The notes beneath the pieces are model-generated. The model saw nothing but the letters and a program-made list of their open reading frames with translations, had not been told where the DNA came from and searched no databases. The position numbers and the translations under genes were made by a program. DNA of 64,000 nt from the NCBI GenBank assembly GCA_000004695.1, contig CM000154.2:1280001-1344000 (forward strand). Direction: 5' to 3'. This document shows positions 4,583-63,369 of the stretch, in pieces; position 1 is the stretch's first letter, and each line of letters opens with the position of its first letter. Source of the DNA: Dictyostelium discoideum (taxonomy: Eukaryota).

Positions 4583-9862
<5,280 letters not shown>

Positions 9863-10028: not shown

Positions 10029-12032
10029 TTATTTTTTTTCAAGTTCAATAGATTTACTATCGTTGTCACTATTATTACTATTTTTACTATTATTACTATT
10101 TTTACTATTATTACTATTTTTACTATTATTATTTTTTCCAAAACTGATATCAGTTCTACTATTGTTTCTAGAAATTCCAGATTCACTTTGGGAAAGTCTG
10201 CTTCTTACTTCATCAAATACAACCTCTGACCAAATATCTCTTGCAACTCTTGAGGTTCCATATATTGAAAAGAATAAAACACCAAAAACTCTAATAAAAA
10301 AATAAAAAATGAAAAAAGATGCATAGTTCGGTCCAGTTGTAAAACAAGTTTCTTCTGACCCACCACTTAATAAACAAAGTACATAATCTGCCACAGCAGC
10401 TTTATATGAATCAATTTTCCTTTCAACATCAAAAAAGAAAATAAATAAATACAAAAATGAGCCAGCAACAGAAAAAACTAAAGAAAAAGGTTTGATTTGT
10501 CTTAATATAAATTCACTCTCTCTAATGTTAACTTTTTTTGAAATCTTAAAAAAAAGTTTTTTTTTTTTAAAAATATTAGTTAAAAAATATAATGAAAAAT
10601 AATTTAATGTTAAATATTTACATTATAAATCTCATGAATAACGCCACCAATACAGAAAATACCAATTGAAAGACCAATACCACAAGGCAACCAAAAAAGT
10701 GTAATAACAAACCTGGAATTTTAATAATATAAAAAAAATAATAATAATAATTTAAATATTAATAACTATCAATATTAAAATTAAATATTTTAAAATTAAT
10801 TTAATAAATACAAACCATCTTTCTCTAACCCAACATTCAATATAACCTGTACCAGCAACCATCTTTTTTGCTGATAAAAGTATAACAGTTGTTATTATAG
10901 TAAAAATTGTATTTCCAATCATAAAATGTCTAAAATAAAATAGTTTTATTCTTTTTACACTACAAAATAATACTATACTCATTGTCATTGCCCAGCAACA
11001 ACAATAGGTTATACCAAAATGAAACATTGCTCCGGTAATTCCACATGCAGCATCATTTTGAACAGCACTTCTACCTGGCTCTGGACATAGAAACTCCTCA
11101 ATACCATAACCAAATTTAATAATATCAGTTAAATAAACCAATGCAATAGAAGTAGACATCAAGGTGATACATATATTATATTTTGATTTTCTTTTTCTAT
11201 TTAAAATTCCAAATGTTAAAATATTATAACAAGCGCAAATAAAACTAATTGATGATAAGGTTTTAGCCATATCATAAACTCTTTTCCATTGGGTTTTTGT
11301 ATAATTTGGCATTGGACAAGTTAGAACGCAGTTTGTTGGTGGGAGATAGGTATAACCTTTATTGGGTGAATATTTTGGGTCACTTGAATTTTTTAAAAGA
11401 AGTGGGTATGGACAAGCTTGAATTAATTCCATTTGGTTGGAAATATTATTATACCCGTCTGTTGGATCAATACATGGTACCTTATATAATCCTTTATTTT
11501 CAGTATACCCATATAGTGTTAAATTATATTCAGTTCCAATCTCTGGAAATAAAAAGGAAATTGAACAATCAATTTTCAAAGAAAGTCTTGGACAATTTGA
11601 GACCATTCTTTCACATACAGATTTACATAATCTTTGAGGCAATGAAACATTTTGTAGAGGTGTAATTTTGGGTATCGTTTCAACACAAGGAGAAAAATTT
11701 AAATCGCACAAACCGAATTGGGTAAATAATAAATCATCGCATTGGTCTTGTAAAAATGTTAAAGCTTCAAAAGATTTTAAAATTTCTATTTTTGAAAGTT
11801 CCTGGGAAGAAATATTTTTATTATCAACAAGTGTAACAGTTGAATAAATTTTTTTACCTCCATTAAATAATCTGTTATTACAAAGTGGTTGGCCAATTGA
11901 ATCCCCGACATAGTTCAAACATTTTGAACCTGGAAATACAATTCCAACTCCATATCCTTTGCTATATTCATTATTTTCCCCATTAATTATTATTATTTTT
12001 AAAATTAAATAAATTAAAAAAATTCTAATCAT
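10029..12032 (-). CDS. Frizzled/Smoothened-like (Fsl-type) 7TM receptor with an N-terminal Frizzled cysteine-rich domain, paralog A. Three exons: 10816..12032, 10622..10712, 10029..10544.
   Basis: Signal peptide MIRIFLIYLILKIIIING. Frizzled-CRD cysteine pattern: C..LLF.QFGLC..NFSPC...LPQRLCKSVCERMVSNCPRL. Seven hydrophobic helices. Post-TM7 YGTSRVARDIW resembles the Frizzled KTxxSW region. Exon 1 ends ...RERW(tg) with a gtttgt donor; the 91-nt exon 2 encodes FVITLFWLPCGIGLSIGIFCIGGVIHEIYN (TM6), which is collinear with paralogs B and C; then gtaaat..ttaag|ATT into exon 3 (ISKKVNIRESEFILRQIKP...). The three-exon model gives about 607 aa. Confidence 0.6.
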
Positions 12033-12249
12033 TTCTTAAATGTTAAATATTTATATAAATGTTAAACTATTAATAATTAAATATAAAACAAAAAATAAGA
12101 TTGCTTAAAAAAAAAAAAAAAAAAAAAAAAAACAACAACGAAATACCCATTTAAAAAAAACAACCAATTACCAGAGCCACTTTTTTTTTTTTGAATTCTT
12201 TTTTTTTTTGATTGGTTCTTGAAATCTCAGGAAAAAATTAGATTCAAAC

Positions 12250-12285
<36 letters not shown>

Positions 12286-12297
12286 TTTTTTTTTATT

Positions 12298-14154
12298 CTA
12301 ATTAATTTTAATTGATTCTAATTCAACTGCTTTCTTTTCATTTAGATTTTTATCATTGTTATCATTTAAAATCATATTGTTATTATTTGTACTATTACTA
12401 TTAATTTTAGAATCACTATTTTTAGGACTGGATTTTGGTGTTGATTTTGGAGAAATTGAGGAACTAATACTTTTCCAGATTTTATTTTGAACCCAAATTT
12501 TTCTTGCAATATTAGATGTACCATAGAATAAAAAAAATATAATTCCAAACCATCTAATAACCAAATAAAATAAAAAATAAGGAACATAGCTTGGTCCGGT
12601 TGTGAAGCATTCTTCTTGGCTTCCATTTAATAAACATAAAACATAATCTTCAACAGCTGATCTATATCCTCCAAATTTTCTTTCAATATCAAAAAAGAAT
12701 ATAAAAAGATATAAAAATGATCCTGAAATAAATATAACAATTAAAAGAGGTTTTAATTCTCTTTGTAGTAAATCATTTCTATTACTAATAGATTTTTTGG
12801 ATGTCTTTTTTTTAAAAAGTATAAAAAGATTAATATTTGTTTAATAATTATATAATTTAAAAAATAAAAATAAAAAAAAACTTACTTTATAAACTTCATG
12901 GATTACAGCAATAATACAAAAAGAACCAATTAATAAGGCAATACCACAAGGAATCCAGAATAAAGATATAGCATACCATCTATCTCTAATCCAACACTCA
13001 ATAGATCCTAAACCAGCTTCGAATTTGGAAGTTGCAGCAGCGATAACAACAGTAGTAATTGTAAAGGTAGTATTACCAATTAAGAAATAATTGAACTTAA
13101 ACCATTTCTGACGTTTAACGCTACAATAAAGAACAAGACCCATTGTCATTGACCATAACACACAATAAGTAATGCCAAGGTGAAAAAATGCACCCGTTAG
13201 ACCACAAACTGGATCAAGTTGTTGTTTGGCACTTCTTCCAGGTTCTGGGCATAAAAGTTCTTCATAGCCAATACCATAGGTAATGATATCACACAGATTA
13301 ACCAATGCAATTGAACCAGAGAAAAAACATGTACATTTATGGGGATCTGATACTTTTTTATTTATTATTCCAAATGTTAAAACATTATATAAAGATAAAA
13401 TAAAACTAATTGTTGATAAAATTTTTGACATTGTTAAAAGTTGATCCCATTTTTGGTTTGAATAATTTGGAACAGGACATGGGAGTACACAATTTGATGG
13501 TGAAAGATATGAATATCCTTTATTAGCGGCATATTCTGGATCACTTGAATTCTTCAACAGTAACGGAGATGGACAAATTTCAATAAAACTAGAATTACTT
13601 GAAACTTGATTAAAAAAAATAGTAGGATCTGAACATGGAACTGCAAAGGTACCATTATCAATAGTATAACCATATGGTGATAGATCATAAAATGTACCAA
13701 TCTCTGGAAATAAAAATGAATTTGAACAATCCATTTGCTCTTCAAGTCTTGGACAATTTGAAACCATTCTATCACATACTGATTTGCAAAATCTTTGTGG
13801 CAAAGATATACTTTTCAATGGGGTTAAAGTTACTTCAATACATGGTGCCAAATAAATATCACAGATTCCAAATTGAGCAAATAATAAATCTTTACATTGA
13901 TCTTGTAAAAATGTTATTGCTTCAAATGATTTCTTTATGTTTGTTTGTGAATCTATTTGTGAATTTGTGGTTGTATAAATTCTATCACCATTATTTTGTA
14001 ATTTACTATTACATAATTGCTGGTCAATTGGATCTCCTATATAATTTAAACACTCTGCATCTGGTATAACTAATCCAATTCCAAATCCTTTTGGTATTTC
14101 AAATCCACTAATATAACTAATAATAAAAATAATAAAAATTATTAAAATTTTCAT
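12298..14154 (-). CDS. Frizzled/Smoothened-like (Fsl-type) 7TM receptor, paralog B. Two exons: 12886..14154 and 12298..12804.
   Basis: Same architecture as paralog A, with blocks of 50-60% identity (FEAITFLQDQCKDLLFAQFGICDIYLAPC...LPQRFCKSVCDRMVSNCPRL). Donor ...HEVYK|GTAAGT (plus-strand acttac at 12882-12887). Acceptor aaaaaaaag|ACA TCC at 12805/12804, phase 0. Exon 2 encodes TSKKSISNRNDLLQRELKPLLIVIFISGSF...DIERKFGGY...YGTSNIARKIW. About 591 aa. Confidence 0.6.
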
Positions 14155-14448
14155 TTTTTATTATTTTTTTATTTTTTATTTATTTATTTTTTTATTTATT
14201 TATTTATTGTTTATTGTTTATTTAATTTATTTTTATTTGTTTTTTTTTTATTGTTTGATTTTATTTTTATTTAATTTATTTTTATTTGTTACAGAGGTTT
14301 AAAAATAAACTTTCAAAAAAAAAAAAAAAAAATTTATAGCGTTCTAAAAAAAAAAGAAGAATTTAAAATAAAAAAAAAAAAATCATATCGCCCACAATGA
14401 ATTCAAAAATCTAAAATGGTTTCGCATCTTTGATTGACACATTATTAG

Positions 14449-14479
<31 letters not shown>

Positions 14480-14523
14480 TGAAAATATCTAAACCACATA
14501 TACCCAAATGAAACCAGTGTTTG

Positions 14524-14578
<55 letters not shown>

Positions 14579-14678
14579 GAGAAAATTATAATAAAATTTT
14601 TAAATTTTAATATCTTGTTTTGCTTAGTGTTTGGTTTTTTTTTTTTTTTTTTTTTATATATGAAAGATTTAAATTAAT

Positions 14679-15902
14679 TTAATCTAAATTTTCCAATGGT
14701 TGGATTGGTTTATTAATTTCTTTTATAGACTCTGTATTTAATTGGCCACATGCAGCCAAGATATCACGACCACGTGGTTGTCTAATAGTAACCTTTATAC
14801 CTTTATCATCTAAAATTTTAGAGAATTGGGAAATAGTTTCCTTTGAAGAAGATTTATATTGTGATCCAGGCCATGGATTAAAAGGTATTAAATTTACAAA
14901 AGATGGAAAAGATTTTGAAAGTTTAACTAAATCATAAGCATCTTGTTCTGAATCATTTACACCTTTTAACATTACATATTCGATTGTTATTCTTTCTTTA
15001 CAATTTTTTGAAAATTTAATACAAGCTTCAACCAATTCAGAGATTGGCCATTGTCTATTTGCAGGTACAATCTCTGAACGAGTTTTATCATTTGCACTAT
15101 GTAATGAAATTGCTAAACCAATACCAGGGAAATCACTACCCAGTCTATCGATCAAAGGTACGACACCACTTGTTGAAACTGTGATTTTACTCTTACCAAT
15201 TGCCAAACCATTTGGATCAGTTATGATTTTGATTGCCTTTGAAACGTTTCTATAATTATAAAATGGTTCACCCTGACCCATAAACACTATATTAGTTAGA
15301 GTTCTTTTTATTGAGGAATCTGTAAAATCATTTAAAACATGTCTTGTCGCTATTACTTGTGATACGATTTCTGATGCAGTTAAATTTCTAATGAATTTTT
15401 GGGTACCAGTATGACAAAATGTGCAGGCGAATGTACAACCAACTTGTGATGAAACACAGAGTGTACCTCTTTTACCTTCGGGTATAAACACACTCTCGAC
15501 TTCTGCACCATCAAATGAAATTAAAAGTTTTCTAGTTCCATCTACTGATAATTGATGTTTGGTAATCTCACCTATATTAACTTCATATTTTGATTTTATT
15601 TCTTCTCTTTTTTCTTTTGATACTCTTTCAAATGAATTTATATCCACAATGCCTTTATTATACATAAATGCCCATATTTGTTCACTTAAATATTTTGGAT
15701 ATCCAAGTTTTAAAACTTTATCTTCTAATTCATCTTTTTGAATTCCAATTAAATTAATTTTTTTTATTATATCTGTTTTTTCATTGGTGGTTGTTGTTGT
15801 TGTTAATATTGATTCATTTTTTGAATCAAAATTTTTAATCTTTGAAAATGAATTACAATCTCTTTTTAAAATTTGATTATTTATTAAAATTCTTCTTATC
15901 AT
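14679..15902 (-). CDS. Radical-SAM dual-specificity RNA methyltransferase, RlmN/Cfr family (probably organellar rRNA/tRNA A-C2 methyltransferase); single exon
   Basis: ORF of 407 aa with the radical-SAM CxxxCxxC motif in an RlmN-like context (GTLCVSSQVGCTFACTFCHTGTQKFIRNLTASEIVSQV) and C-terminal ...ILAACGQL. The N-terminus is basic and could be a presequence. Confidence 0.75.
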   Translation of the reverse strand: MIRRILINNQILKRDCNSFSKIKNFDSKNESILTTTTTTNEKTDIIKKINLIGIQKDELEDKVLKLGYPKYLSEQIWAFMYNKGIVDINSFERVSKEKREEIKSKYEVNIGEITKHQLSVDGTRKLLISFDGAEVESVFIPEGKRGTLCVSSQVGCTFACTFCHTGTQKFIRNLTASEIVSQVIATRHVLNDFTDSSIKRTLTNIVFMGQGEPFYNYRNVSKAIKIITDPNGLAIGKSKITVSTSGVVPLIDRLGSDFPGIGLAISLHSANDKTRSEIVPANRQWPISELVEACIKFSKNCKERITIEYVMLKGVNDSEQDAYDLVKLSKSFPSFVNLIPFNPWPGSQYKSSSKETISQFSKILDDKGIKVTIRQPRGRDILAACGQLNTESIKEINKPIQPLENLD

Positions 15903-16274: not shown

Positions 16275-19200
16275 TTAAGTTTGAGTAAACATACGTGGAG
16301 CAATTGACATTGACATTAATTCTTGGAATAAAAGTTTTGCAGCATATGGCATTCTAATTTGAGAAATTTGAGTTTTATTTTTACATCTACGACATTCAAA
16401 TGAATTCTTTTTTAGATTTGCAATTGCAATGAGACCACAAATATCACAAATATGAACACGATAACTATCTGATTGATCGAATAAACGTTCTTTTAAGAAT
16501 TGAGCTGCACCATGAGAAATCATACAATCCTAAAATTATAATAATAATAATAATAATTTAAAATTAATAACTATTTTTACCTTATTTTTTTTTTTTTTTT
16601 TTTTTTTTTTATTAAAAAAACTTACTCTTTCCATCTCACCAAAACGTAAACCACCATCACGAGAACGACCTTCTACAGGTTGACGGGTTAAAATTTGAAC
16701 AGGACCTCTTGAACGACTGTGAATTTTATCATCCACCATATGTTTTAAACGTTGATAATAAGTTGGACCAATAAAGATTTGAGCATCCATACGACGACCA
16801 GTGTGACCATTATACATAACTTCATGACCAGTCATTTGATAACCAATTTTGTGTAGTGCTTGTGAAATAGCTTCTACAGTGACATCAGTGAATGGGGTAG
16901 CATCACCTTCATCACCAGTTGAAGCAGATACTTTACCAAGAAGACATTCAATCAATTGACCAATGGTCATACGAGATGGAATAGCATGTGGATTTACAAT
17001 GATATCTGGAACGATACCTTCAACAGTGAATGGTAAATCCTCTTGACGATAAGCCATACCACAAGTACCTTTTTGACCATGACGAGAAGAGAACTTATCA
17101 CCGATTTGAGGTACACGCATTGAACGAACACGAACTTTACAAAATTTGAAACCTTCACCACTTGTGGTGAGAATAACTTGATCGACAATACCAGTCTCTG
17201 AGGAACGGAGTGCTGTTGAACTATCACGTTTAGTGTGACGACGTGTTTTTGGACCTAAATCATCATCGGATGGTGGTAATGGAGTGGTTTTACCAATGAT
17301 AATATCATCACCAGCCACACGGACACCTGGAGCAACCAAACCATCGTCATCAATCTTTTCATAGGAACCATGACGCATACCAGCGCAAGTATCACGTTCT
17401 GGTTTTTCAAATACTTCTTCCATGAGTGAGGTTTGTTTCTTTTGTTCATCCTTGTATGCACGATAAAACATTGAACGGAAAAGACCACGATCAATAGCCG
17501 ATTGATTTAAAATTACAGAATCCTCTTGATTGTAACCAGAGTAACAAGCGATGGCTACACATACATTTTGACCGGCAGGTAACTCTCTGAAATGAAGATA
17601 CTCCATTGAACGAGTGGTTACCAATGGTTTCTGTGGATAGAATAACACATGGGCCATAGTATCCATACGAAGTTGATAATTTGTAATATAAACACCCATA
17701 GCTTGTTTACCCATAGCAGCTTGATAGGTATTACGTGGTGATTGATTATGATCTGGGAAAGGAATGATAGAGCAACAAATACCCAAAATCATCGATGGAT
17801 GAATTTCACAATGTGTATAGGTATGCACAATTTGCTCGTTTGGCATTGGCACCAAATCTTCGGGAGTCATTGCAATTAGAACGGTCTCTTCTTCTTCAGC
17901 ATCGATATATTCAACGATACCCTCACTTAGGAGATCTTGCCATTTGTATTCGTCATTGTTGATCAATTTATTGATATGTTGTTTCTTAATTTGAACTTTA
18001 TTGTCTTGAACCACAAACAATGGACGACAACATCTACCAGGATCAGTGTACAATCTTAATTCCTTCTCACGAATATCTCTAACAACTGAAACCTCTACGG
18101 ATACATCACCACAACGACGCAATAAACGAAGGGTACTTAATAACTTATCTGGTTGATGATGAATACCTACCCACATACCATTTACAAAGATCTTTGTAGC
18201 AGAGAAAATTGAAGAGAGATCACTAATCTCCTCGAGATTCTCTGTTGTCCATTCTTCAAGAAACTCTAAAATTGGTTGAGATGCTGAACCTACAGAAATG
18301 TAAGACATCATAGCAAGATTCTTTACCAAACCACATGCTTGACCTTCTGGTGTTTCGGATGGACAAACGATACCCCAATGAGTGTTATGAAGTTGACGTG
18401 GTTTTGCTAATTTACCCTCTCTACCGATTGGTGTATTCAAACGACGTAAATGAGATAATGTTGAGGCAAAAGTTAAACGATTCAATACTTGAGCTACACC
18501 ACTCTTTGTGCCACCACTCTTTGAAGAACCCCAATTACCAGTTGCCAATGAATATTTCAAACCACTTGTTATTGTTTTGGATTTAACAGCAGATGATGCA
18601 ATGAATTCTTTATCTTTATCTATACAACGTTGAAGATAAAGACGGACATCTTTTGTAAGTTTTTTAAAAAGTTGACGGAAAAGTGTACCAAGTAGTGGAC
18701 CAGCCAAATCCAAACGTTTATTTGCAAAATGATCACGATCATCCAATGGACGTCTTTCAAGTGAAGCCAATAAAAGACGATGAGTGATATAACCAAAGTA
18801 AAATGCTTTCTTTGTTTCATAGAATTCAGCGACACTAACATGTGGTAACATTTCCTTTTGTAATACTTCACGAGCGAATTTGATACGTTGTTCACGAGTA
18901 CCCATTGTGGAACCACGTTTACCCAAATAATCCAAAGCAACCTCTTGTGATTGAATGACAAAGGACTCCTCGAGTGATGGTCTCATAAGATCCATCATTT
19001 GGGCATCCTTGAAGTCATAACAAATATGTTCTAAAATATCTTTATCGGCAACAAAACCCAATGCTCTAAAGACAATGATAACGGGTACATCTTGTTTAAT
19101 GTAGGGTACAGTGGCTTTGATACCCACTGGACCCTTGTTGGTATTGTGTAACATTTTCAAATACATTGTTGAGGTTGGTCTTGAACCTGTCTCTTGACAA

Positions 19201-19643
19201 GAACGAATCTCTGCAACATATGAATATTTTGATGGTGGTGATTTCTTAAATACGTAAACATGATTGTTGTTCATCTTCTCTTGTGCAATCAATACCTTTT
19301 CACTACCATTAATGATGAAATAACCGCCTTGATCGAATGAACATTCTCCCATCGTTGTTAAATCTCTATCATCTGCTTCATTCAACATACAATATTGTGA
19401 ACGTAACATAATTGGTACTTTACCAATGAAAATTCTCTTTAATACCTCATCGGTTCTTCTTTCATCACCTTTACTCTTTGATCCTGTCATCACCGTTTTC
19501 GTAATATCCACAAATAATGGTGCTGAATAGGTTAAATTTCTAATTCTTGCTTGATTTGGTGTAACTTGTTGTGATACACCATCAATTTCTGCTGTTGGTT
19601 TACTAAGATAAATTTGTCCAAATTTAACTGAAAATGTTGATAC

Positions 19644-19677
<34 letters not shown>

Positions 19678-20079
19678 TAATAATAATAAATTATTAATAA
19701 ATTATAAATATTTATATTATGAGAGTGTGTGTGTATAATTATTGAAATAAATTCATACATTATTACTAACTACTGCTTGACCTGGATGATGTTGTGATTC
19801 AGGTCTTAATGTAATTGGTGGTGATTCATCTATAATTTCTTGCATTGTATTTTGAATAAACTCATCAAATGAATCTAATTGTTGTCTAACTAAACCTTTC
19901 TCTTGAAAATATGCACTAATAACTGTCCAAACATCCTCTTGCGATATATCTGCATGTGGATTATCTATAAAATCATTATAATTTAATAGTTAATAATAAT
20001 TATAATAATAGTAAATATACAATATACTATATATAATATACATACCTTGGGAATCATCATTCATCATATAATCAGACAT
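16275..20079 (-). CDS. rpb2: DNA-directed RNA polymerase II second-largest subunit (Rpb2). Four exons: 20046..20079, 19759..19964, 16626..19643, 16275..16529.
   Basis: Exon 1 is ATG TCT GAT TAT ATG ATG AAT GAT GAT TCC CAA G then GTATGT. Exon 2 encodes [36 protein letters not shown]..., matching the yeast Rpb2 N-terminus. The main exon carries [15 protein letters not shown]...GEMER then GTAAGT. The last exon is [16 protein letters not shown]...CRRCKNK...[16 protein letters not shown] (zinc ribbon). Overall close collinearity with yeast Rpb2. The model gives 80+1006+84 = 1170 aa. Confidence 0.9.
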
Positions 20080-23436: not shown

Positions 23437-25635
23437 GGGTTATCCAGAACAAACTGCATCAGAAGTTGTAGCAAAAATTTTTACATTTGGTTCATATAGA
23501 TTGGGTGTACATGGCCCAGGTAGTGATATTGATACACTTTGTGTTGGTCCAAAACATATAATGAGATCAGACTTTTTTGATGATTTATCAGATATTTTAA
23601 AAGTTCATCCAGAAATTACAGAATTTACAGTAAATATTATTAGATAATTATTATTTATATTAAAATATAACAAATCAAATTAAATTTTTAATACTAATTT
23701 ATTAATTTTTTATTTATTTTTTTTATTTTTTATTTTTATTTATAGACAGTCAAAGATGCATTTGTACCAGTTATAACAATGGTATTTTCAGGTATACCAA
23801 TTGATTTAATTTATGCAAAATTAGCATTAACAGCAATTCCAGAAGAATTAAATGATTTAATTGATGAATCATTTTTAAAGAATATTGATGAAAAGAGTAT
23901 TCTTAGTTTAAATGGTTGTCGTGTGACTGATCAAATTTTAAAATTGGTACCAAATATTCCAAACTTTAGAATGGCATTAAGATGTATTAAACTTTGGGCA
24001 ATTAGAAGAGGTATTTATTCAAATATTTTAGGATTTTTAGGTGGTGTATCGTGGGCACTTTTAACAGCAAGAATCTGTCAACTCTATCCAAACTCTGCAC
24101 CAAGTACCATCATTCATAGATTTTTCAAGGTATATGAAATTTGGAAATGGCCAGCACCCATTTTATTATGTCACATTCAAGAGGGTGGTATTTTAGGTCC
24201 AAAGGTTTGGAATCCAAAGAGAGATAAAGCTCATTTAATGCCAATTATTACACCAGCATATCCTTCAATGAATTCCACTTACAATGTATCCAAATCAACA
24301 TTACAATTAATGAAGAGTGAATTTGTTAGAGGTGCAGAGATCACAAGAAAGATTGAAACTGGTGAATGTACTTGGAAGAATTTATTGGAGAAATGTGATT
24401 TCTTCACTCGTTATAGTTTTTATATAGAGATCGATTGTTATTCAATGAATGAAGAAGATTCTAGAAAATGGGAGGGTTGGATAGAATCCAAATTAAGATT
24501 TTTAATTTCAAACTTAGAGTCTACACCAAAGATGAAGTTTGCTGTGCCATATCCAAAAGGATTTACAAACAATCTTCATAAAGCAAATAATCCCGATCAA
24601 ATTTGTACCTCTTTTTTCATGGGTCTCTCTTTTAATTTTTCAAATACACCAGGTGCCGATAAAAGTGTTGATTTAACCAAAGCTGTGACTGAATTCACTG
24701 GTATAATTAAAGATTGGCTTAGAACTCAACCAAATCCTGATACAATGGATATTAAAGTACAATATATTAAAAAGAAACAACTTCCAGCTTTTGTAAAGGA
24801 TGAAGGTCCTGAAGAACCTGTAAAAACTACAAAGAAGAGATCTTCAACTGGTGAACCTTCTGCAACTAGAAAGAAATTAAAAAGTGAAAATTCTGATAAT
24901 AAATTAAATTCTCCAAAATCTCCAATAACTACAAATATTAATTCTACACCTACTACTTCCACTCCTACTACTACTGCTAATACTACCACTAATACTACCA
25001 CTGCTACTACTACTACCACTACTACAACTGTTCCGATCACTTCCACACCAACTTCAAATATTTCTTCACCAACTATGAATTCTACAGAGTTAACTACACC
25101 AACTTCAACCTCTACAACAACTTCAAATGATTCAATTACAACTCCTCCTACCACTACAACTATCAACTCTGTACAACCACCATCTGCACAACCAACCGAA
25201 AATGGTTCATCAACATCTAATTCACCAACATCTACTTCAATAAATAATACCGCATTACCACCCAATCCAACCACAAACAGTGAGTCAACTATTGAAACAA
25301 CAATAACCCTACCAACAACATTAGAGTCACAAACATCAACATTAAAAGATAGTAACGAAATATCCACCAATGGTACAGCAGTTGCAACTGAACCAACAAT
25401 TACTTCACCATCTGTAAATATAAATGAATCATCAACATCAACATCAACAACAACTACAACAACAGTAACCGAACAACAAATTCAAACTGCACCAACAACT
25501 GCTACTCCAATAAATAAAACCATTGTAAACACTATGGAAGTTAATGAATTAAGCTTCATTTCATCTTCAAGTGAAACTTCTCAATCTAAACCACCACCAA
25601 AGAAACCAACTATCAGTATTATTAGAGGCAATTAA
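22980..25635 (+). CDS. Poly(A) polymerase (canonical nuclear PAP) with a long S/T/N-rich C-terminal tail. Three exons: 22980..23327, 23437..23628, 23746..25635.
   Basis: Exon 1 ...[22 protein letters not shown] then GTAAAT. Exon 2 [47 protein letters not shown]... (nucleotidyltransferase GS...DID motif), then gtaaat. Exon 3 from tatag|ACA: [27 protein letters not shown]...[62 protein letters not shown], almost identical in blocks to vertebrate PAPOLA. The minus ORF 24726..25370 is an antisense artefact. Confidence 0.9.
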
Positions 25636-32495: not shown

Positions 32496-33538
32496 TTAGT
32501 TGGCAGCAGCGATATCTTTGGCGTATTGAGCAAGAGTACCGTGGTTGGTGATGACTTTAACGTTGGCACCATCGTTCATTAAACGACCGTCAGCTTTTAA
32601 TTTTTGGTAAGCTTCACGATTGTAGGCGGTGAAACCCCATTTCTTTGAGACAACGATCTTTTGACGACCTGGGAATTTGTATGAAGATCTACGTAAAGCT
32701 TCAACAACGTTGGCTAACATATTATCTCTGGTTCTGATGGAGAAAATGATTTGACCAATATTAACACGAGCAACAGTACCCATTGGTTTACCGAAGGCAC
32801 CTCTCATACCGGTTTGAAGTCTATCTGCACCAGCGCATGAAAGCATCTTGTTAATACGTAATACGTGCCATGGGTGAACTCTGACTCTCATGTGGAATGA
32901 ATCTTTACCACCAGTCTTTGAGATGTATTTGTTACATGAAATACGACCAGCTTCAATGGCTTCTGATGAAAGTTGTTCTTTTTCGAGGGAGATGAGATGA
33001 ACACATAATGGGAATTCATCAGTTGATGCTTTCTTACGACCTAAATCGAAAATTCTGATTTTAGCATCTGGTACACCACGACAATATCTAGATTTGATGT
33101 ATGGTTTGTTCTAAAGTGAGAGAGGTTAGTTCTCTTCTACTTTTTTTTAAAAAAAAAATAAAATAAAATTAACTTACTTTGCAATATCTGTAGCTATTTT
33201 TTCCAATTGGTTTATAATTTTTTTTTTATAAAGTTGAAATTTTAGTTAGTATCTATATTCATCATAATCCTTTATCTGTATAATAAGTCCAATATAAATA
33301 TATCCTCATTCTTCAATCAATCCAATATCATCATAAATAATCTATAATCAATCCTATCAATCTTTATTTCTCAATCCCATATCTAACCTATTGATAATTA
33401 CCATCTAGCTGGACCTAAATATTTTTAAAAAATAATGTTAGTTTATTTTATTTTTTTTTATTTTTTATTTTTTTTTTTAATTAATTTTTTATGTGATATG
33501 TGATATAGTGACACATACGACGACCCATTTTTTATATT
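32496..33538 (-). CDS. rpl10: 60S ribosomal protein L10 (uL16/QM), with three 5' micro-exons. Exons: 33529..33538 (10 nt), 33402..33414 (13 nt), 33178..33193 (16 nt), 32496..33110.
   Basis: ATGGGTCGTC|gtatgt, then tttag|GTCCAGCTAGATG|gtaatt, then aatag|CTACAGATATTGCAAA|gtaagt, then tttag|AACAAACCATAC... The splice yields MGRRPARCYRYCK|[109 protein letters not shown].... This is an exact match to the universal RPL10 N-terminus. 217 aa. Confidence 0.88.
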
Positions 33539-37087: not shown

Positions 37088-39928
37088 ATGAATAAATTTT
37101 ATTCATTACCATTAATTATTATTTTAATAATTTCGTGTGGTGCTTTTTTTATCCACGGAGAAGAGGCATATTTTGAATATAGGATTCATAATGAAAAATT
37201 TATTTTCAAACTTAGTGATGATATTAAAATTCAACATGCAAGAAGAGTATTATCTGGTGGTATGTATTTACAAATAAAAAAATAAATAAATAACTTAAAA
37301 AATAAACAAATAATTAATTAATTATATAATCGAATTAATAAATTAATAAATAAATGAAAAAATAAATAAACAATTAAATAAATAAAAAAATAAAAGAATG
37401 AATTGATTGACAACATTATACTAATTTTTTTTTTTTATAAATTCTTATAGATGAAATAAGTTTGTAAGTTGATAATAGTTATTTTATTATTATTTATTTA
37501 AATATCTTCTTAATATTAATATTTACTATAACCCAATAATTATAAAAAAATAGAACAAACGTTGTAGGTAAAATTATTAACAAACCAATAGAATATAATA
37601 TTAATTGGGATTTTCATCTTGACCCAGACTCAGTTACTTTTTTTGAATCTGAAACAGAGGTAAATTTATATTTAATAATATTTTTATTTTATTTATTTAT
37701 TTTTTAAAAAATATTTAACAAAGTCAATTAACATGTAAATTAAAAATATTTAAAAAAAAAAAAAAAAAAAATAGTTTTGTAACCAAAAATTCCAGTATGT
37801 AAATGGATATATTGATAAACTTTGTGAAAGTGATAATTGTTATTTTTGCCCATGGGATGGTTCACTTGTTAGGGAATTATATTTTGGAGATATTAAACAA
37901 GATCTATTACTTCGTAATAATGAAAATCAACAAGTAAAACAAGTATATGAAGGTGATATTAAACAAGATTTAATTCGTCGTAAAAATAAAATTCATCCAG
38001 AAAAACAAATGCATGAAGAGGATATTAAACAACAAGTTTTTTTCCGTATCAAAAATATTCATGAAAAACCAGTTTATGAAGGTGATATCAAACAAGATTT
38101 ATTACGTCGTAAAAATAAAAATAATCCAGAGAAACAAGTATATGAAGGTGATATTAAACAAGATTTATTACGTCGTAAATATTATGATAAATCTCAATCA
38201 ACCCAAGTATATCAAGGTGATGTGATTCAAGATATATTACGTTCAATAAATCGTCAAGAAAAAGAAATTTATGAAGGTGATATCAAACAAGATTTATTAC
38301 GTCGTAATAATCAAAATAATCAAGAAAAACAAGTTTATGAAAGTGATATCAAACAAGATATTTTACGTCGTAAATATTATGAAAAATCCCAATCAACCCA
38401 AGTATATCAAGGTGATATGACTCAAGATATATTACGTTCATTAAATCGTCAAGAAAAAGGAGTTTATGAAGGTGATATCAAACAAGATTTATTACGTCGT
38501 AAGTATTATGATAAATCTCAATCAAACCAAGTATATCAAGGTGATGTGATTCAAGATATTTTACGTTCTATAAATCGTGATAAAAAACCAGTTTATGAAG
38601 GTGATATCAAACAAGATTTGTTGCTTCGTAATAATCAAAATCCACAAGAGAAATCAATATATGAAGGTGATATCAAACAAGATATATTACGTCGTAAAAA
38701 TCTTGATAAATCTCAATCAATACAATTTTATCCAGGTGATATTATTCAAGATATTTTACGTGTTTTAAATCGTGAGGAAAAAGAAGTTTATGATGGTGAT
38801 ATTAAACAAGACTTATTATCTCGTAAAAATCTTGCCAAATATCAATCAACAGAAGTATATCCAGGTGATGTCATTCAAGATGTTTTACGTGTATTAAATC
38901 ATGATGAAAAAGAAGTTTATGAAGTTGATATCAAACAAGACTTGTTACGTCGTAATAATAAAAATCCACAAGAGAAACCAGTATATGAAGGTGATATTAA
39001 ACAAGATATTTTACGTCGTAATAATCTTGATAAATCTCAACCAAAACAAGTATATCCAGGTGATACTATTCAAGATATTTTACGTATTATTAATCGTGAT
39101 GAGAAAGTTTACGAAGGTGATATTAAACAAGACTTATCAGGTCGTAAAAATCATCAAGAGAAAACTGTTTATGAAGGTGATATCAAACAAGACTTATTAC
39201 GTCGTAAAAATCTTGATAAACCTGATTCAAAACAAGTATATCCAGGTGATGTTATTCAAGATATTTTACGTGTTATTAATCGTGATGAAAAAGAAGTTTA
39301 TGAAGGTGATATTAAACAAGACTTATTACATCGTAATAACAAAAATCGTCAAGAGAAACCAGTATATGAAGGTGACATTAAACAAGATTTATTACGTCGT
39401 AATAACAAAAATCATCAAGAAGAACAAGTATATCAAGGTGATATTATTCAAGATATTTTACGTGTTTTAAATCATGAAGAGAAAGAAGTTTACGAAGGTG
39501 ATATTAAACAAAATTTGTTGCGTCGAAAAAATCATGATCATCCAGAAAAAGAAATTTATGAAGGTGATATTAAACAAGATTTATTACGTCGTAATAACAA
39601 AAACCATCAAGAGAAACTTGTTTATGAAGGTGACATTAAACAAGATTTATTACGTCGTAATAACAAAAATCATAAAGAAGAACAAGTATATCAAGGTGAT
39701 ATTATTCAAGATATTTTACGTGTTTTAAATCATGGAGAAAAAGAAGTAAATGAGGATGAAATTGAAAAAGATTTGATGCAACGTAAAAATCACCATCAAG
39801 AAGAAGAGGCTTCTGAAGACTTGGAAGAAGAAATTGGAAAACTTTGGAATAAACAAAGTCAAGCATTTGTTGAACAACATCCAAACCAACACAACAATCA
39901 AAAAACAATTCACTTGTCAAGACAATAA
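37088..39928 (+). CDS. Secreted tandem-repeat protein of unknown function: signal peptide plus about 28 copies of a 22-25 aa charged repeat (consensus ..[22 protein letters not shown]..). Four exons: 37088..37259, 37451..37463 (13-nt micro-exon), 37554..37659, 37775..39928.
   Basis: Exon 1 [26 protein letters not shown]... (signal peptide) ends in phase 1 with GTATGT. cttatag|ATGAAATAAGTTT|gtaagt restores the frame into aaatag|A ACA AAC GTT..., giving [35 protein letters not shown]|gtaaat. The final exon starts either at atag|TTT (37775) or ccag|TAT (37796); both are in frame. It encodes ...[33 protein letters not shown]... followed by the repeat array (ORF 38009..39928). The overlapping small plus ORFs (38013.., 38577.., 38901.., 39474..) are repeat-frame artefacts. 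Confidence 0.6.
37880..39760 (+). repeat. Coding tandem repeat array of about 66-75 bp units (consensus gtttatgaaggtgatattaaacaagatttattacgtcgtaa...)
   Basis: Direct reading: more than 25 near-identical units in alternating A/B forms ([15 protein letters not shown]... / [20 protein letters not shown]). Confidence 0.85.
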
Positions 39929-59548: not shown

Positions 59549-60470
59549 TTAATTTAAACCCAATAATTGTGATGAAATTTGATTTAATGGGAAATCTTTA
59601 AGTTCATCTGAATTTTCAATTATTGATTTAATTTGATTTTTACGATGTTGATAACGGACTGAATTGACGGTACTGGTTGGAAATATCTTTATAAATTGGG
59701 CCATTCTTGGATTGAAACTTTTATTTGACATACTACCATGTGGCATTTGTTGATTCCAAACTACTATACTTCCCTTTCTCATTGATATTCTTTTGGCATA
59801 TTTAAATGCGATATCTTTTTTATCGAAATTCCAACTTGGACTTGTGTATTGTGGTTTTTTCGATGTAAAATATTCGTTGAATATAGTGTGAAACCCTGGT
59901 GTCACACAATAGCCCCCATCAAGTTCTTGGTTATCCAACAGGTTTATCACACCTTGTAATTGCAAACCGTCATTTTGGGTGGGTTGGTTATTCTCCACAA
60001 TGAATTCACCCAATCTTGCGTATGTCAATTTACTCAATTCCTCTCTACAAATGTCGCCATTACCCATCCAATTGTATGGATTCATATCTAAATGAACATT
60101 GTCATTTGTCTTCCATTTTGGGTTCACCAATGTTGGTCTAAAGAAACATGCCCTGTCATGGTTTACCATTAAATCTTGATTCTTTAATAATTTAGAAAAT
60201 ACTTTATAAACATTTGGATTGGTACGATTCATTAAAAATTGTTTTTTAAATATTGGTGGTTTACTTGGTGATCCATACTGTGGTATTGACGAACCATCTT
60301 CTGAAAATGTTTGATCCCATGTACTTTGGTCATTTCTATCAAATGTTTTAACTTTACTTTCTATTATATCAAATATTTCACCAACTGTTTTATTACAATC
60401 TTCTTCACTTATTACATTTCTTATTACTAAAAATCCATATCTTTCAAAAAATTCATAAGGATTATTTTCT

Positions 60471-60513
<43 letters not shown>

Positions 60514-60598
60514 AGTTATCTAAATCCTCTAATGAAAATGATTTAGAATATCCTTCATTATCAATTGAAATTTTAAATGATTTTAAAATTTCTTCCAT
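59549..60598 (-). CDS. Phytanoyl-CoA dioxygenase (PhyH)-like 2-oxoglutarate/Fe(II)-dependent oxygenase; single exon
   Basis: 349-aa ORF. N-terminal FFERYGFLVIRNVISEEDC is typical of PhyH-family starts. Candidate iron ligands HLDMNPY (HxD) and a distal ...MPHGS... His. Poly-N insert. The family assignment is by motif only. Confidence 0.5.
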
Positions 60599-60726
60599 TT
60601 TATTATTATTTTTATTTTTTTATTATTATTACTTTTGATCTATCCTTGTTTTTTTTTTTTTTTTTGGTGGTTTTTTGACTTTTTTTTATTTTTTTTTTTT
60701 TTGGGAAATTTCACATTTTTCTTATT

Positions 60727-60774
<48 letters not shown>

Positions 60775-61245
60775 TTATTTTTATCACAATTAATTACAAA
60801 AAAGGAAAAACACTTTTTAATAAAAAAATAAAAAAAAAAATAAAAACACAAAAATTGTTGGGGTATTTTTTTTGTTTTTTTGTTTTTTTTTTTTTTAATA
60901 GATTTATTTCAAAGAGATTGAAAAAAAGAATTCCAATAATAAAATGACCCTTTGATAGCTAATAAACATTTATTTTGTTTTCATAGATACACATATATTA
61001 TTTGAATTTTTTTAATTTTTTTATTTTAATTTTTATTTAATTTTGATTTAATTTTATTTTTTTTTATTTTTTTTTATTTTTTTTATTTTTTTTTTAATTT
61101 AATTATTATTATTATTATTTTCACACCTATTTTTAAAAAAAAAAAATTAAAAAAATAAAAATAATTTTTTTTTTTTTTTCATTTTCATTTCAATTCAATT
61201 TTACTAAACACAACATAACCTTATTATAAAAACAAACATATAAAA

Positions 61246-61317
61246 ATGGTGAGTAAAATTTTAATTCTCATTAATTTATTAAATTATCAATATAATTGTA
61301 GTTCATAATATTAATTT

Positions 61318-61363
<46 letters not shown>

Positions 61364-61541
61364 CTTCTTTCTCTTCTTCTGTATTTAGACACACTCATGT
61401 AAATGCGGAGACTCTTGCCAATGTGGTGATAAATGTACATGTGGACCAAAGGAAACACCAAAATGTGGATGCAGTGACTGTAAATGTGGCGATAAATGCT
61501 CAAGTGATTGCAAATGCACCTCTTGCACCTGTAAAAAATAA
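61246..61541 (+). CDS. Metallothionein-like cysteine-rich small protein (51 aa; 17 Cys in C-x-C / C-x-x-C clusters). Two exons: 61246..61248 (ATG only) and 61389..61541.
   Basis: taaaaATG|gtgagt (the donor directly follows the start codon) ... ctgtatttag|ACA CAC TCA TGT AAA TGC GGA GAC TCT TGC CAA TGT GGT GAT AAA TGT ACA TGT GGA CCA AAG GAA ACA CCA AAA TGT GGA TGC AGT GAC TGT AAA TGT GGC GAT AAA TGC TCA AGT GAT TGC AAA TGC ACC TCT TGC ACC TGT AAA AAA TAA. This gives M-THSCKCGDSCQCGDKCTCGPKETPKCGCSDCKCGDKCSSDCKCTSCTCKK. Exon 2 is a local GC-rich island in AT-rich DNA. The minus ORFs 61303..61572 and 61385..61597 are antisense artefacts. It is below the 60-aa track cut-off. Confidence 0.5.
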
Positions 61542-62029
61542 ATTTTACCTTTAATAAATAAACAATTATCATTCAAAAAAAAAAAAAAAAAAAACAAAAC
61601 AAATTGTTACCAACTCAAATCAACCAATAAAATTTCAAAAATCAAGTTACTTTTCTATTTTTATTTCTTTCTATTTTTTTTTTTATATTTTTTCCTCTTT
61701 TCTTTCTATTTTTTTTTATTTTTCCTCTTTTCTTTCTATTTTTTTTTTTTTTTCTCTTTTCTTTCTTTTAAAATATTCATAAAATTTGGAAATAAATTAA
61801 AAAAAATAAATAAAATTAACAATTAATTACTTATGATATCTTTAATTGTTATCTTTTTTTTTTTTTTTTTATTATAAAGTCAATTTTTTTTTTTTTTTCA
61901 TAATTCAAAGATACCATACTTCACATCCTTTTGGGGAAATGACAAATAATAAATAAAATAAATTATTTTTAGAATTTCTAAAAACGTAAAAAAATGAAAT
62001 ATTTTTATTTTTTGTGAAATTTTTATTTT

Positions 62030-62262
62030 TTTATTTTTTTAAAATGTCCCACAATCATATTGAATAGTTGGTCTAGGTTAGAGCAAATTAAAGATTGTTT
62101 TTTTAAAATTTGAACAATTAAATGTGTACCCAAATACTCTTTCTTAAAATTAATTGGAAAGAGTCGTTCCTGTACCCAAGAAAAACCTTTACATGTATGG
62201 TAAAACACTGACTAGGAAGGCATCTCGCCAATTTTAGCTGGTACTTGGATTGTATTACATTC
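62030..62262. other. Block of about 230 bp with markedly lower AT content than the flanks; unassigned (possible ncRNA, UTR/terminal exon fragment or relic)
   Basis: Sequence ...tagttggtctaggttagagcaaatt...ggaaagagtcgttcctgtacccaag...ggtaaaacactgactaggaaggcatctcgccaattttagctggtacttggattg.... The minus ORF 62023..62208 (61 aa) begins with GTG, not ATG, and has a stop immediately upstream. No snRNA or tRNA consensus was recognised. Confidence 0.25.
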
Positions 62263-63369
62263 CCTAAAAATAATTTCTAAAAAAAAAAGAAAAAAAAAAA
62301 TATATGTGTATAATACACTCTTTTAAATCAACTTGACCTTTTACTCTAATATATAAATGTATCAAATAATAACAAAACTTTTTTTTTTTTTAAAAAAAAA
62401 TTCAAATAATATTACCTTAATTATTTTTATTTTTATATTTGTTTATTTAACTCTCCTTTACAGAAAAATTGCAAAATAAAACGAATAAATTTATAATTTA
62501 GATTGTAATTTTTTTCTAATTCGAGTAATGTTATCATAATAATAATATATTGATAAAGGCATTCAAGCCTGACACTTGAGAAAAAAATACTTTCATTCTA
62601 TTTTTTTTTTATTTTTTTTTTTTTTAACAACAATTTAATTTTTTTTATTTTTAAAAATGAACTAAGTATTGATAAATAGAACACTCAAAAATATACAAAC
62701 TATATAAAAAAATGAATGTAATAATAAAAAAATAATAAAAAAAAAAAAAAAAATAAAAAAAATAAAAAAAAATTAATTAAACAACTTAAATTATTTGCCA
62801 TCAAAAAAAAAGCTTTTTTTTTTTTTTTTTTTTATAAATGTTATAAAAAAAATAATAAATTATATAAAAAAAAGAAAAACCCTTTTTGAACATCATTTTT
62901 AACTGAAAACTTTTCTGATCTGTAAAATAATTATTACTGCGCAACGATTTGTTAACAAATGCAAAATTAGATATTTTCAAAAAATTTTGTTTTATTTTTT
63001 TAAATTTTTTTATTTTTTTTTATTTTTTTTTTTTTTTTTTATTTTTTTATTTTTTTATTTTTTTATTTTTTTTTTTGTGCCTTTTCAATATAAAAAATTT
63101 TTCTTTTGAAAAATAAAAAAAAAAATTTTATTTATTATTTTCTCATTATTGTTATTGTTGTTTTTTATTATTTTTATTTTCATTAATTAATTCAATAAAT
63201 AAAAAAAAAAAAAAAAAAAAAAAGAATAGTTTCAATTTGGATTAAATAAAAAAAAAAAAAATATGGAAGGTAATTGGTTTTTTTTATTTTTTTTATTTTA
63301 TTTTTTATTTTAATGAAAATAAACAAAATAGAATATATATATAATAATAAACACACAAATATCCAGTGT

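Follow-up and report, generated by a model that had tools for sequence, protein, structure and literature searches.

A two-exon gene of Dictyostelium discoideum, very probably DDB_G0288281, with a predicted Zym1-type metallothionein-like product

The DNA analysed here (the window) is a 64-kb stretch of Dictyostelium discoideum chromosome 5, in which three genes could be tied to annotated loci. A Roc-COR-kinase-WD40 architecture was recognised in the ORF at 5408-9862, whose kinase domain matches that of D. discoideum Roco4 (PDB 4F0F) with 100% identity; roco4 is DDB_G0288251. The Rpb2 ORF at 16536-19760 corresponds to polr2b (rpb2, DDB_G0288257) and the poly(A) polymerase ORF at 23779-25635 to papA (DDB_G0288259). 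The identifiers of roco4, rpb2 and papA ascend along the window, in steps of two. Three tandem ORFs of 407 to 437 aa occupy the minus strand at 10752-15902. The first two are 57% identical to each other; their N-terminal part is rich in Cys, and hydrophobic segments are located towards the C-terminus. A gene family seems to have expanded locally between roco4 and rpb2. The highest GC content of any ORF in the window (41%) was found at 32499-33110 on the minus strand, and the translation of this ORF resembles, as judged by eye, ribosomal protein L10/QM. For the 639-aa ORF at 38009-39928 on the plus strand, whole-protein Pfam E-values of 6e-12 (NMB0315_dom_I) and 1.4e-9 (YopX) were obtained, both bacterial/phage families, with no single stretch over the threshold; these matches are most likely a low-complexity artefact.

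Near the end of the window a PhyH-family gene (59549-60598, minus strand) and a short Cys-rich gene (61246-61541, plus strand) are divergently arranged. The promoter region common to both contains a 134-nt T-rich tract within 60603-60782. Just 3' of the Cys-rich gene, at 61651-61766, a T/C-rich unit of 30 nt (TTTTTTTTTTTTTTCCTCTTTTCTTTCTA) is repeated in tandem about three times, with 91% matches. Located 500 nt downstream of the gene is a second GC island at 62050-62300, with up to 33% GC. Within it, ACTCTTTC...GAAAGAGT make up a perfect hairpin of 8 bp, and TGTACCCAA is present as a direct repeat. No convincing ORF was identified on either strand of this island, and comparison with Rfam gave nothing at the gathering threshold, with E-values at chance level and folding z-scores of -0.6 and -0.4. 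The island might represent a small exon, a relic or a so far unclassified ncRNA.

The Cys-rich gene starts with an ATG at 61246-61248 in the context aaaaATG, and this codon constitutes the complete coding part of exon 1. Directly 3' of it, from 61249, follows a GTGAGT donor. The intron (61249-61388) has a length of 140 nt and a GC content of 12.2%, and it contains a pure run of 49 T at 61315-61363, then a TTTCTTC-type pyrimidine tract, and a TTTAG acceptor. Exon 2 (61389-61541) comprises 153 nt, that is 50 codons and the TAA stop. Reading of the sequence and a scripted splice confirmed these coordinates and thereby the architecture proposed in the initial annotation, namely a GTGAGT donor after an ATG in good context, a pyrimidine-rich intron and a GC-rich exon of 153 nt. 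Upstream, the interval 61165-61245 on the plus strand probably includes a promoter-proximal T run and the 5'-UTR: a run of 15 T at 61165-61179 is followed by C-containing, non-repetitive DNA as far as the ATG. Downstream, an AATAAA at 61553-61558 on the plus strand, 12 nt after the stop codon, is a likely poly(A) signal.

The predicted exon junction (61248/61389) reads ...ATATAAAAATG / ACACACTCATGTAAATG, and the predicted spliced product is a peptide of 51 aa and 5.3 kDa, MTHSCKCGDSCQCGDKCTCGPKETPKCGCSDCKCGDKCSSDCKCTSCTCKK, with the N-terminal letters MTHSCKCGDSCQ and the C-terminal letters CTCKK. Since the in-frame codon immediately 5' of exon 2 is a TAG that overlaps the acceptor, and no in-frame ATG exists inside exon 2, translation of this exon requires that it be spliced to a start codon further upstream. 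The sequence, as read from the DNA, allows only one gene model, which consists of the ATG, the intron and a single exon.

On both strands of the window the motif ATGGTRAGT occurred only once, at the start codon and donor of this gene. Its expected frequency is about 0.9 per window, and chance would place it within 300 nt upstream of the exon, on the correct strand, with a probability of about 0.002. Two further candidate introns in the window, identified by a script from splice signals and ORF continuity, share the form of this intron, with GTAAGT donors, 5-6% GC, lengths of 96-114 nt, and AAAG or TTTAG acceptors. Exon 2 is an isolated GC island, with 40.5% GC compared to 23.4% for the whole window and 5-19% for the flanking DNA. 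A six-frame scan of the window for other Cys-rich stretches revealed solely simple-repeat poly-Cys artefacts.

Within exon 2 the sequence CGDKC is repeated with different synonymous codons (TGT GGT GAT AAA TGT and TGT GGC GAT AAA TGC). TGC represents 7 of the 15 Cys codons of the exon, compared to 5 of 89 in seven neighbouring ORFs of the window (Fisher p = 1.6e-4). Gly codons are mostly GGA instead of the usual GGT. This atypical codon use might stem from a bias linked to expression, from avoidance of repeats in the DNA or from the origin of the gene.

Cysteine accounts for 15 of the 51 residues of the predicted peptide (29%), a count that corrects the 17 initially reported. The cysteines are arranged in seven C-x-C motifs (CKC, CQC, CTC, CGC, CKC, CKC and CTC) and one lone Cys. 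Six of them are found in residues 5-19 and nine in residues 27-49, and the linker separating the two blocks, GPKETPK, is free of Cys and contains proline. The peptide includes no aromatic residue and one His, Met1 is its sole hydrophobic residue, and no signal peptide was detected in the 51-aa product. Operationally, metallothioneins are defined by a low mass, about 30% Cys, C-x-C or C-C motifs, and few or no aromatic residues or His. All of these features are present in the peptide, and the metallothionein-type composition claimed for it holds with 29% Cys, seven C-x-C motifs and no aromatics.

Comparison of the peptide with Pfam gave a match to PF12749 (Eukaryotic metallothionein, Metallothio_Euk) of 41.6 bits (E = 1.2e-10), the curated gathering cut-off of this family being 22 bits, with residues 4-51 aligned to positions 12-59 of the 59 positions of the profile. 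Eight full shuffles of the peptide and the reversed peptide did not match PF12749. A shuffle that preserved the Cys positions reached 11.6 bits, below the cut-off, which corresponds to a loss of about 30 bits. The shuffle controls indicate that the score does not derive from composition or Cys spacing alone, and the drop caused by the Cys-preserving shuffle implies that it depends also on the residues between the cysteines. The profile score may be partly circular if the same protein sits in the family alignment.

Reference metallothioneins (human MT2A, yeast CUP1, a plant metallothionein and Schizosaccharomyces pombe Zym1) were included in the profile scan. Human MT2A, yeast CUP1 and the plant protein matched their own families, and none of them reached the PF12749 cut-off. 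Zym1 matched the full PF12749 profile with 44.2 bits; the sequence used is identical to the database entry 'metallothionein Zym1 [Schizosaccharomyces pombe]' (P0020), which carries PF12749. BLASTP of the peptide against Zym1 with compositional adjustment resulted in E = 4e-4 and 50% identity over 28 aa, the aligned strings being KCGCSDCK...DCKCTSCTC in the peptide and KCGCQDCK...NCKCSSCKC in Zym1. In a MAFFT alignment, 11 of the 12 Zym1 cysteines fell into Cys columns of the peptide. This pairwise match is independent of the circularity that may affect PF12749, yet modest in absolute terms. Profile and BLASTP comparison thus bear out the metallothionein-like reading, and they support assignment of the predicted gene product as a Zym1-type (PF12749) metallothionein-like protein.

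A phmmer search with the peptide, a short and biased query, against 1.84 billion representatives returned nothing at E <= 0.001. One candidate and nothing at E <= 1 resulted from a word-index protein search with the peptide, and word-index protein searches yielded no relatives beyond Zym1. No relative was found on metagenome contigs, either by protein scan or by exact DNA comparison. The loci of the PhyH orthologues of Polysphondylium violaceum, Acytostelium subglobosum, Cavenderia fasciculata and Tieghemostelium lacteum contained no metallothionein-like ORF; this four-species result says little, as the genes beside PhyH differ there. The best library relative of the PhyH-family neighbour itself was a P. 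violaceum protein of 61% identity. Because no exact entry exists for this neighbour, D. discoideum proteins seem to be absent from the libraries, and the negative library searches therefore say little on conservation of the metallothionein. The missing orthologues largely reflect library content and the way gene callers treat such a gene, which encodes 51 aa and whose first exon contributes no coding sequence beyond the ATG.

In the D. discoideum genome one gene, DDB_G0288281, is annotated as a putative metallothionein, and the question of whether it is a true metallothionein was left open (Bozzaro et al. 2013, PMC3777012). This identifier falls within the ID range of the window, where exactly one ORF is metallothionein-like. 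Counting genes from papA leads to an ID of 281 to 283; an exact count is precluded by the three tandem paralogous ORFs, for which only the IDs 253 and 255 are available. Atg101 (DDB_G0288287) lies outside the window, as its published peptide was looked for there and was absent. From the order of the IDs and the fact that the annotation is unique, and not from a sequence match, we consider it highly probable that the Cys-rich gene is DDB_G0288281, 'putative metallothionein protein'. The two agree in organism and, judged by the ordered IDs, in chromosomal neighbourhood. The novelty for dictyostelids that the initial annotation had envisaged has to be given up, since DDB_G0288281 was already annotated and appears in the 2013 review (PMC3777012) and in RNA-seq tables (PMC7078664). 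The gene is already known, and the present analysis sharpens its family assignment (Zym1 / PF12749, backed by controls) and does not amount to a discovery.

In the KpGe-versus-control sheet of an RNA-seq study, DDB_G0288281 is listed with an AveExpr of 6.66, a logFC of -0.72 and an adjusted P of 0.0012 (Lamrabet et al. 2020, Table S1, PMC7078664). These values are limma output on a log2 scale after voom, and the gene is among 8,553 reliably detected genes (PMC7078664). As this listing shows, the annotated DDB_G0288281 is transcribed in growing amoebae, and it is mildly reduced on exposure to Klebsiella. A chemical assay revealed no metallothionein activity in D. discoideum, as this result is cited in later papers (Burlando et al. 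2002, via PMC3777012 and bioRxiv 10.1101/356949). Metallothionein protein, if made, may be scarce or may have been missed by the 2002 assay. Upstream of the gene, no metazoan-type metal response element (TGCRCNC) was found. This element is specific to metazoan MTF-1, and its absence therefore excludes a metazoan-style promoter only.

We considered whether the peptide merely converges on the composition of metallothioneins and has another role, for example in thiol redox buffering or as a secreted or signalling disulfide-rich peptide. Such a view would agree with the negative metallothionein assay and with the mild change in the bacteria-exposure RNA-seq, an experiment without metals, and metallothionein families are described as notoriously hard to tell apart from composition (PMC3777012). 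However, the likeness to Zym1 extends beyond Cys spacing, as seen from the 30 bits lost in the Cys-preserving shuffle and from the BLASTP match obtained with adjustment for composition. Moreover, absence of a signal peptide and Met1 as sole hydrophobic residue make a disulfide-knot fold or secretion unlikely. Convergence is thus an improbable explanation, and we retain the Zym1-type metallothionein-like assignment.

It is very improbable that exon 2 is the final part of a larger coding sequence with another upstream exon, or that it continues downstream, although it requires an upstream start and although a GTAAAA in its last codons could in principle serve as donor. The 647 nt from the divergent PhyH start (60598) to the ATG consist of homopolymer and repeat DNA of 5-17% GC that contains no ORF; the sole other ATG in this interval, at 60944, opens an ORF of 3 codons, and none is present between 60944 and 61246. 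The unique ATGGTGAGT is positioned exactly 140 nt upstream of exon 2 in compatible phase. On the other side, the AATAAA follows 12 nt after the stop codon and no plus-strand ORF of at least 30 aa occurs before 61846. The initial annotation had weighed its stand-alone peptide against a larger Cys-rich protein; the surrounding DNA offers neither space nor coding signal for additional exons, and the stand-alone peptide stands. Finally, a chance ORF or a decayed, non-functional gene, as might be suspected from the very short ORF, the lack of a retrieved orthologue and the atypical codon use, is extremely improbable in view of the intact start, donor, acceptor, ORF, stop and AATAAA, the GC island formed by the exon, the different synonymous codons of the CGDKC repeat, and the expression of the annotated gene (AveExpr 6.66 among 8,553 reliably detected genes).

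Altogether, we have good confidence in the reading of this locus as a stand-alone two-exon D. discoideum gene, in all probability DDB_G0288281, that encodes a 51-aa Zym1-type metallothionein. The chain of the predicted peptide cannot form a hydrophobic core, because it has no aromatic residues and Met1 is its sole hydrophobic residue. As is typical of metallothioneins, it would be expected to fold only around metal-thiolate clusters. Two clusters are probably formed, one by the 6-Cys block (residues 5-19) and one by the 9-Cys block (residues 27-49), with GPKETPK between them. By analogy with known metallothionein clusters, these might approximate M2Cys6 and M3Cys9, which would accommodate about five Zn(II) or Cd(II), or more Cu(I). 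In analogy to Zym1, which buffers zinc in fission yeast, the peptide may buffer surplus Zn, Cd or Cu in the cytosol, protect against cadmium, copper or oxidants, and possibly act as an oxidant scavenger. We propose only tentatively, as possible rather than probable, that in Dictyostelium this Zym1-type peptide indeed works as a cytosolic buffer of Zn, Cu and Cd.

As a standard model, Dictyostelium is used to study how bacteria in phagosomes are poisoned by metals. Papers in this field state that no classical metallothionein activity was detected in D. discoideum (PMC3777012; bioRxiv 10.1101/356949). If the peptide were a working buffer, this would overturn the assumption, derived from one negative assay of 2002, that classical metallothionein activity is lacking and that the amoeba relies on the contractile vacuole and transporters. 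PF12749 would then represent an old metallothionein lineage common to Amoebozoa and fungi. A transcribed gene of the Zym1 type would also mean that the cytosolic buffering side of Zn/Cu handling has scarcely been examined so far.

Among known metallothioneins, the vertebrate (PF00131), yeast CUP1 (PF11403) and plant type-1/2 (PF01439) families resemble the peptide in being small, with about 30% Cys, C-x-C motifs and no aromatics, and the peptide did not match any of these three profiles. A search of PDB sequences returned the Cd-metallothionein of the snail Littorina littorea (6QK5) as sole match, which was not significant (E = 2). The two proteins have recurrent CxCGxxCxC motifs in common, a likeness of motif type only, whereas the snail protein is built from tandem 9-Cys domains and belongs to a different family. 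The closest counterpart is Zym1 of S. pombe, a metallothionein with zinc-regulated expression and a preference for divalent metal ions. Unlike Zym1, which has 12 Cys, the peptide described here has 15; at its N-terminus it has three additional C-x-C-G-D-x-C-type motifs in a row, and it is devoid of the first approximately 11 positions of the PF12749 profile. Zinc regulation of Zym1 operates via Loz1-controlled interfering RNAs, and nothing comparable is visible at the gene here. Both are small, cytosolic-looking, single-copy peptides of nearly the same length, with 50 aa in Zym1 and 51 aa in D. discoideum.
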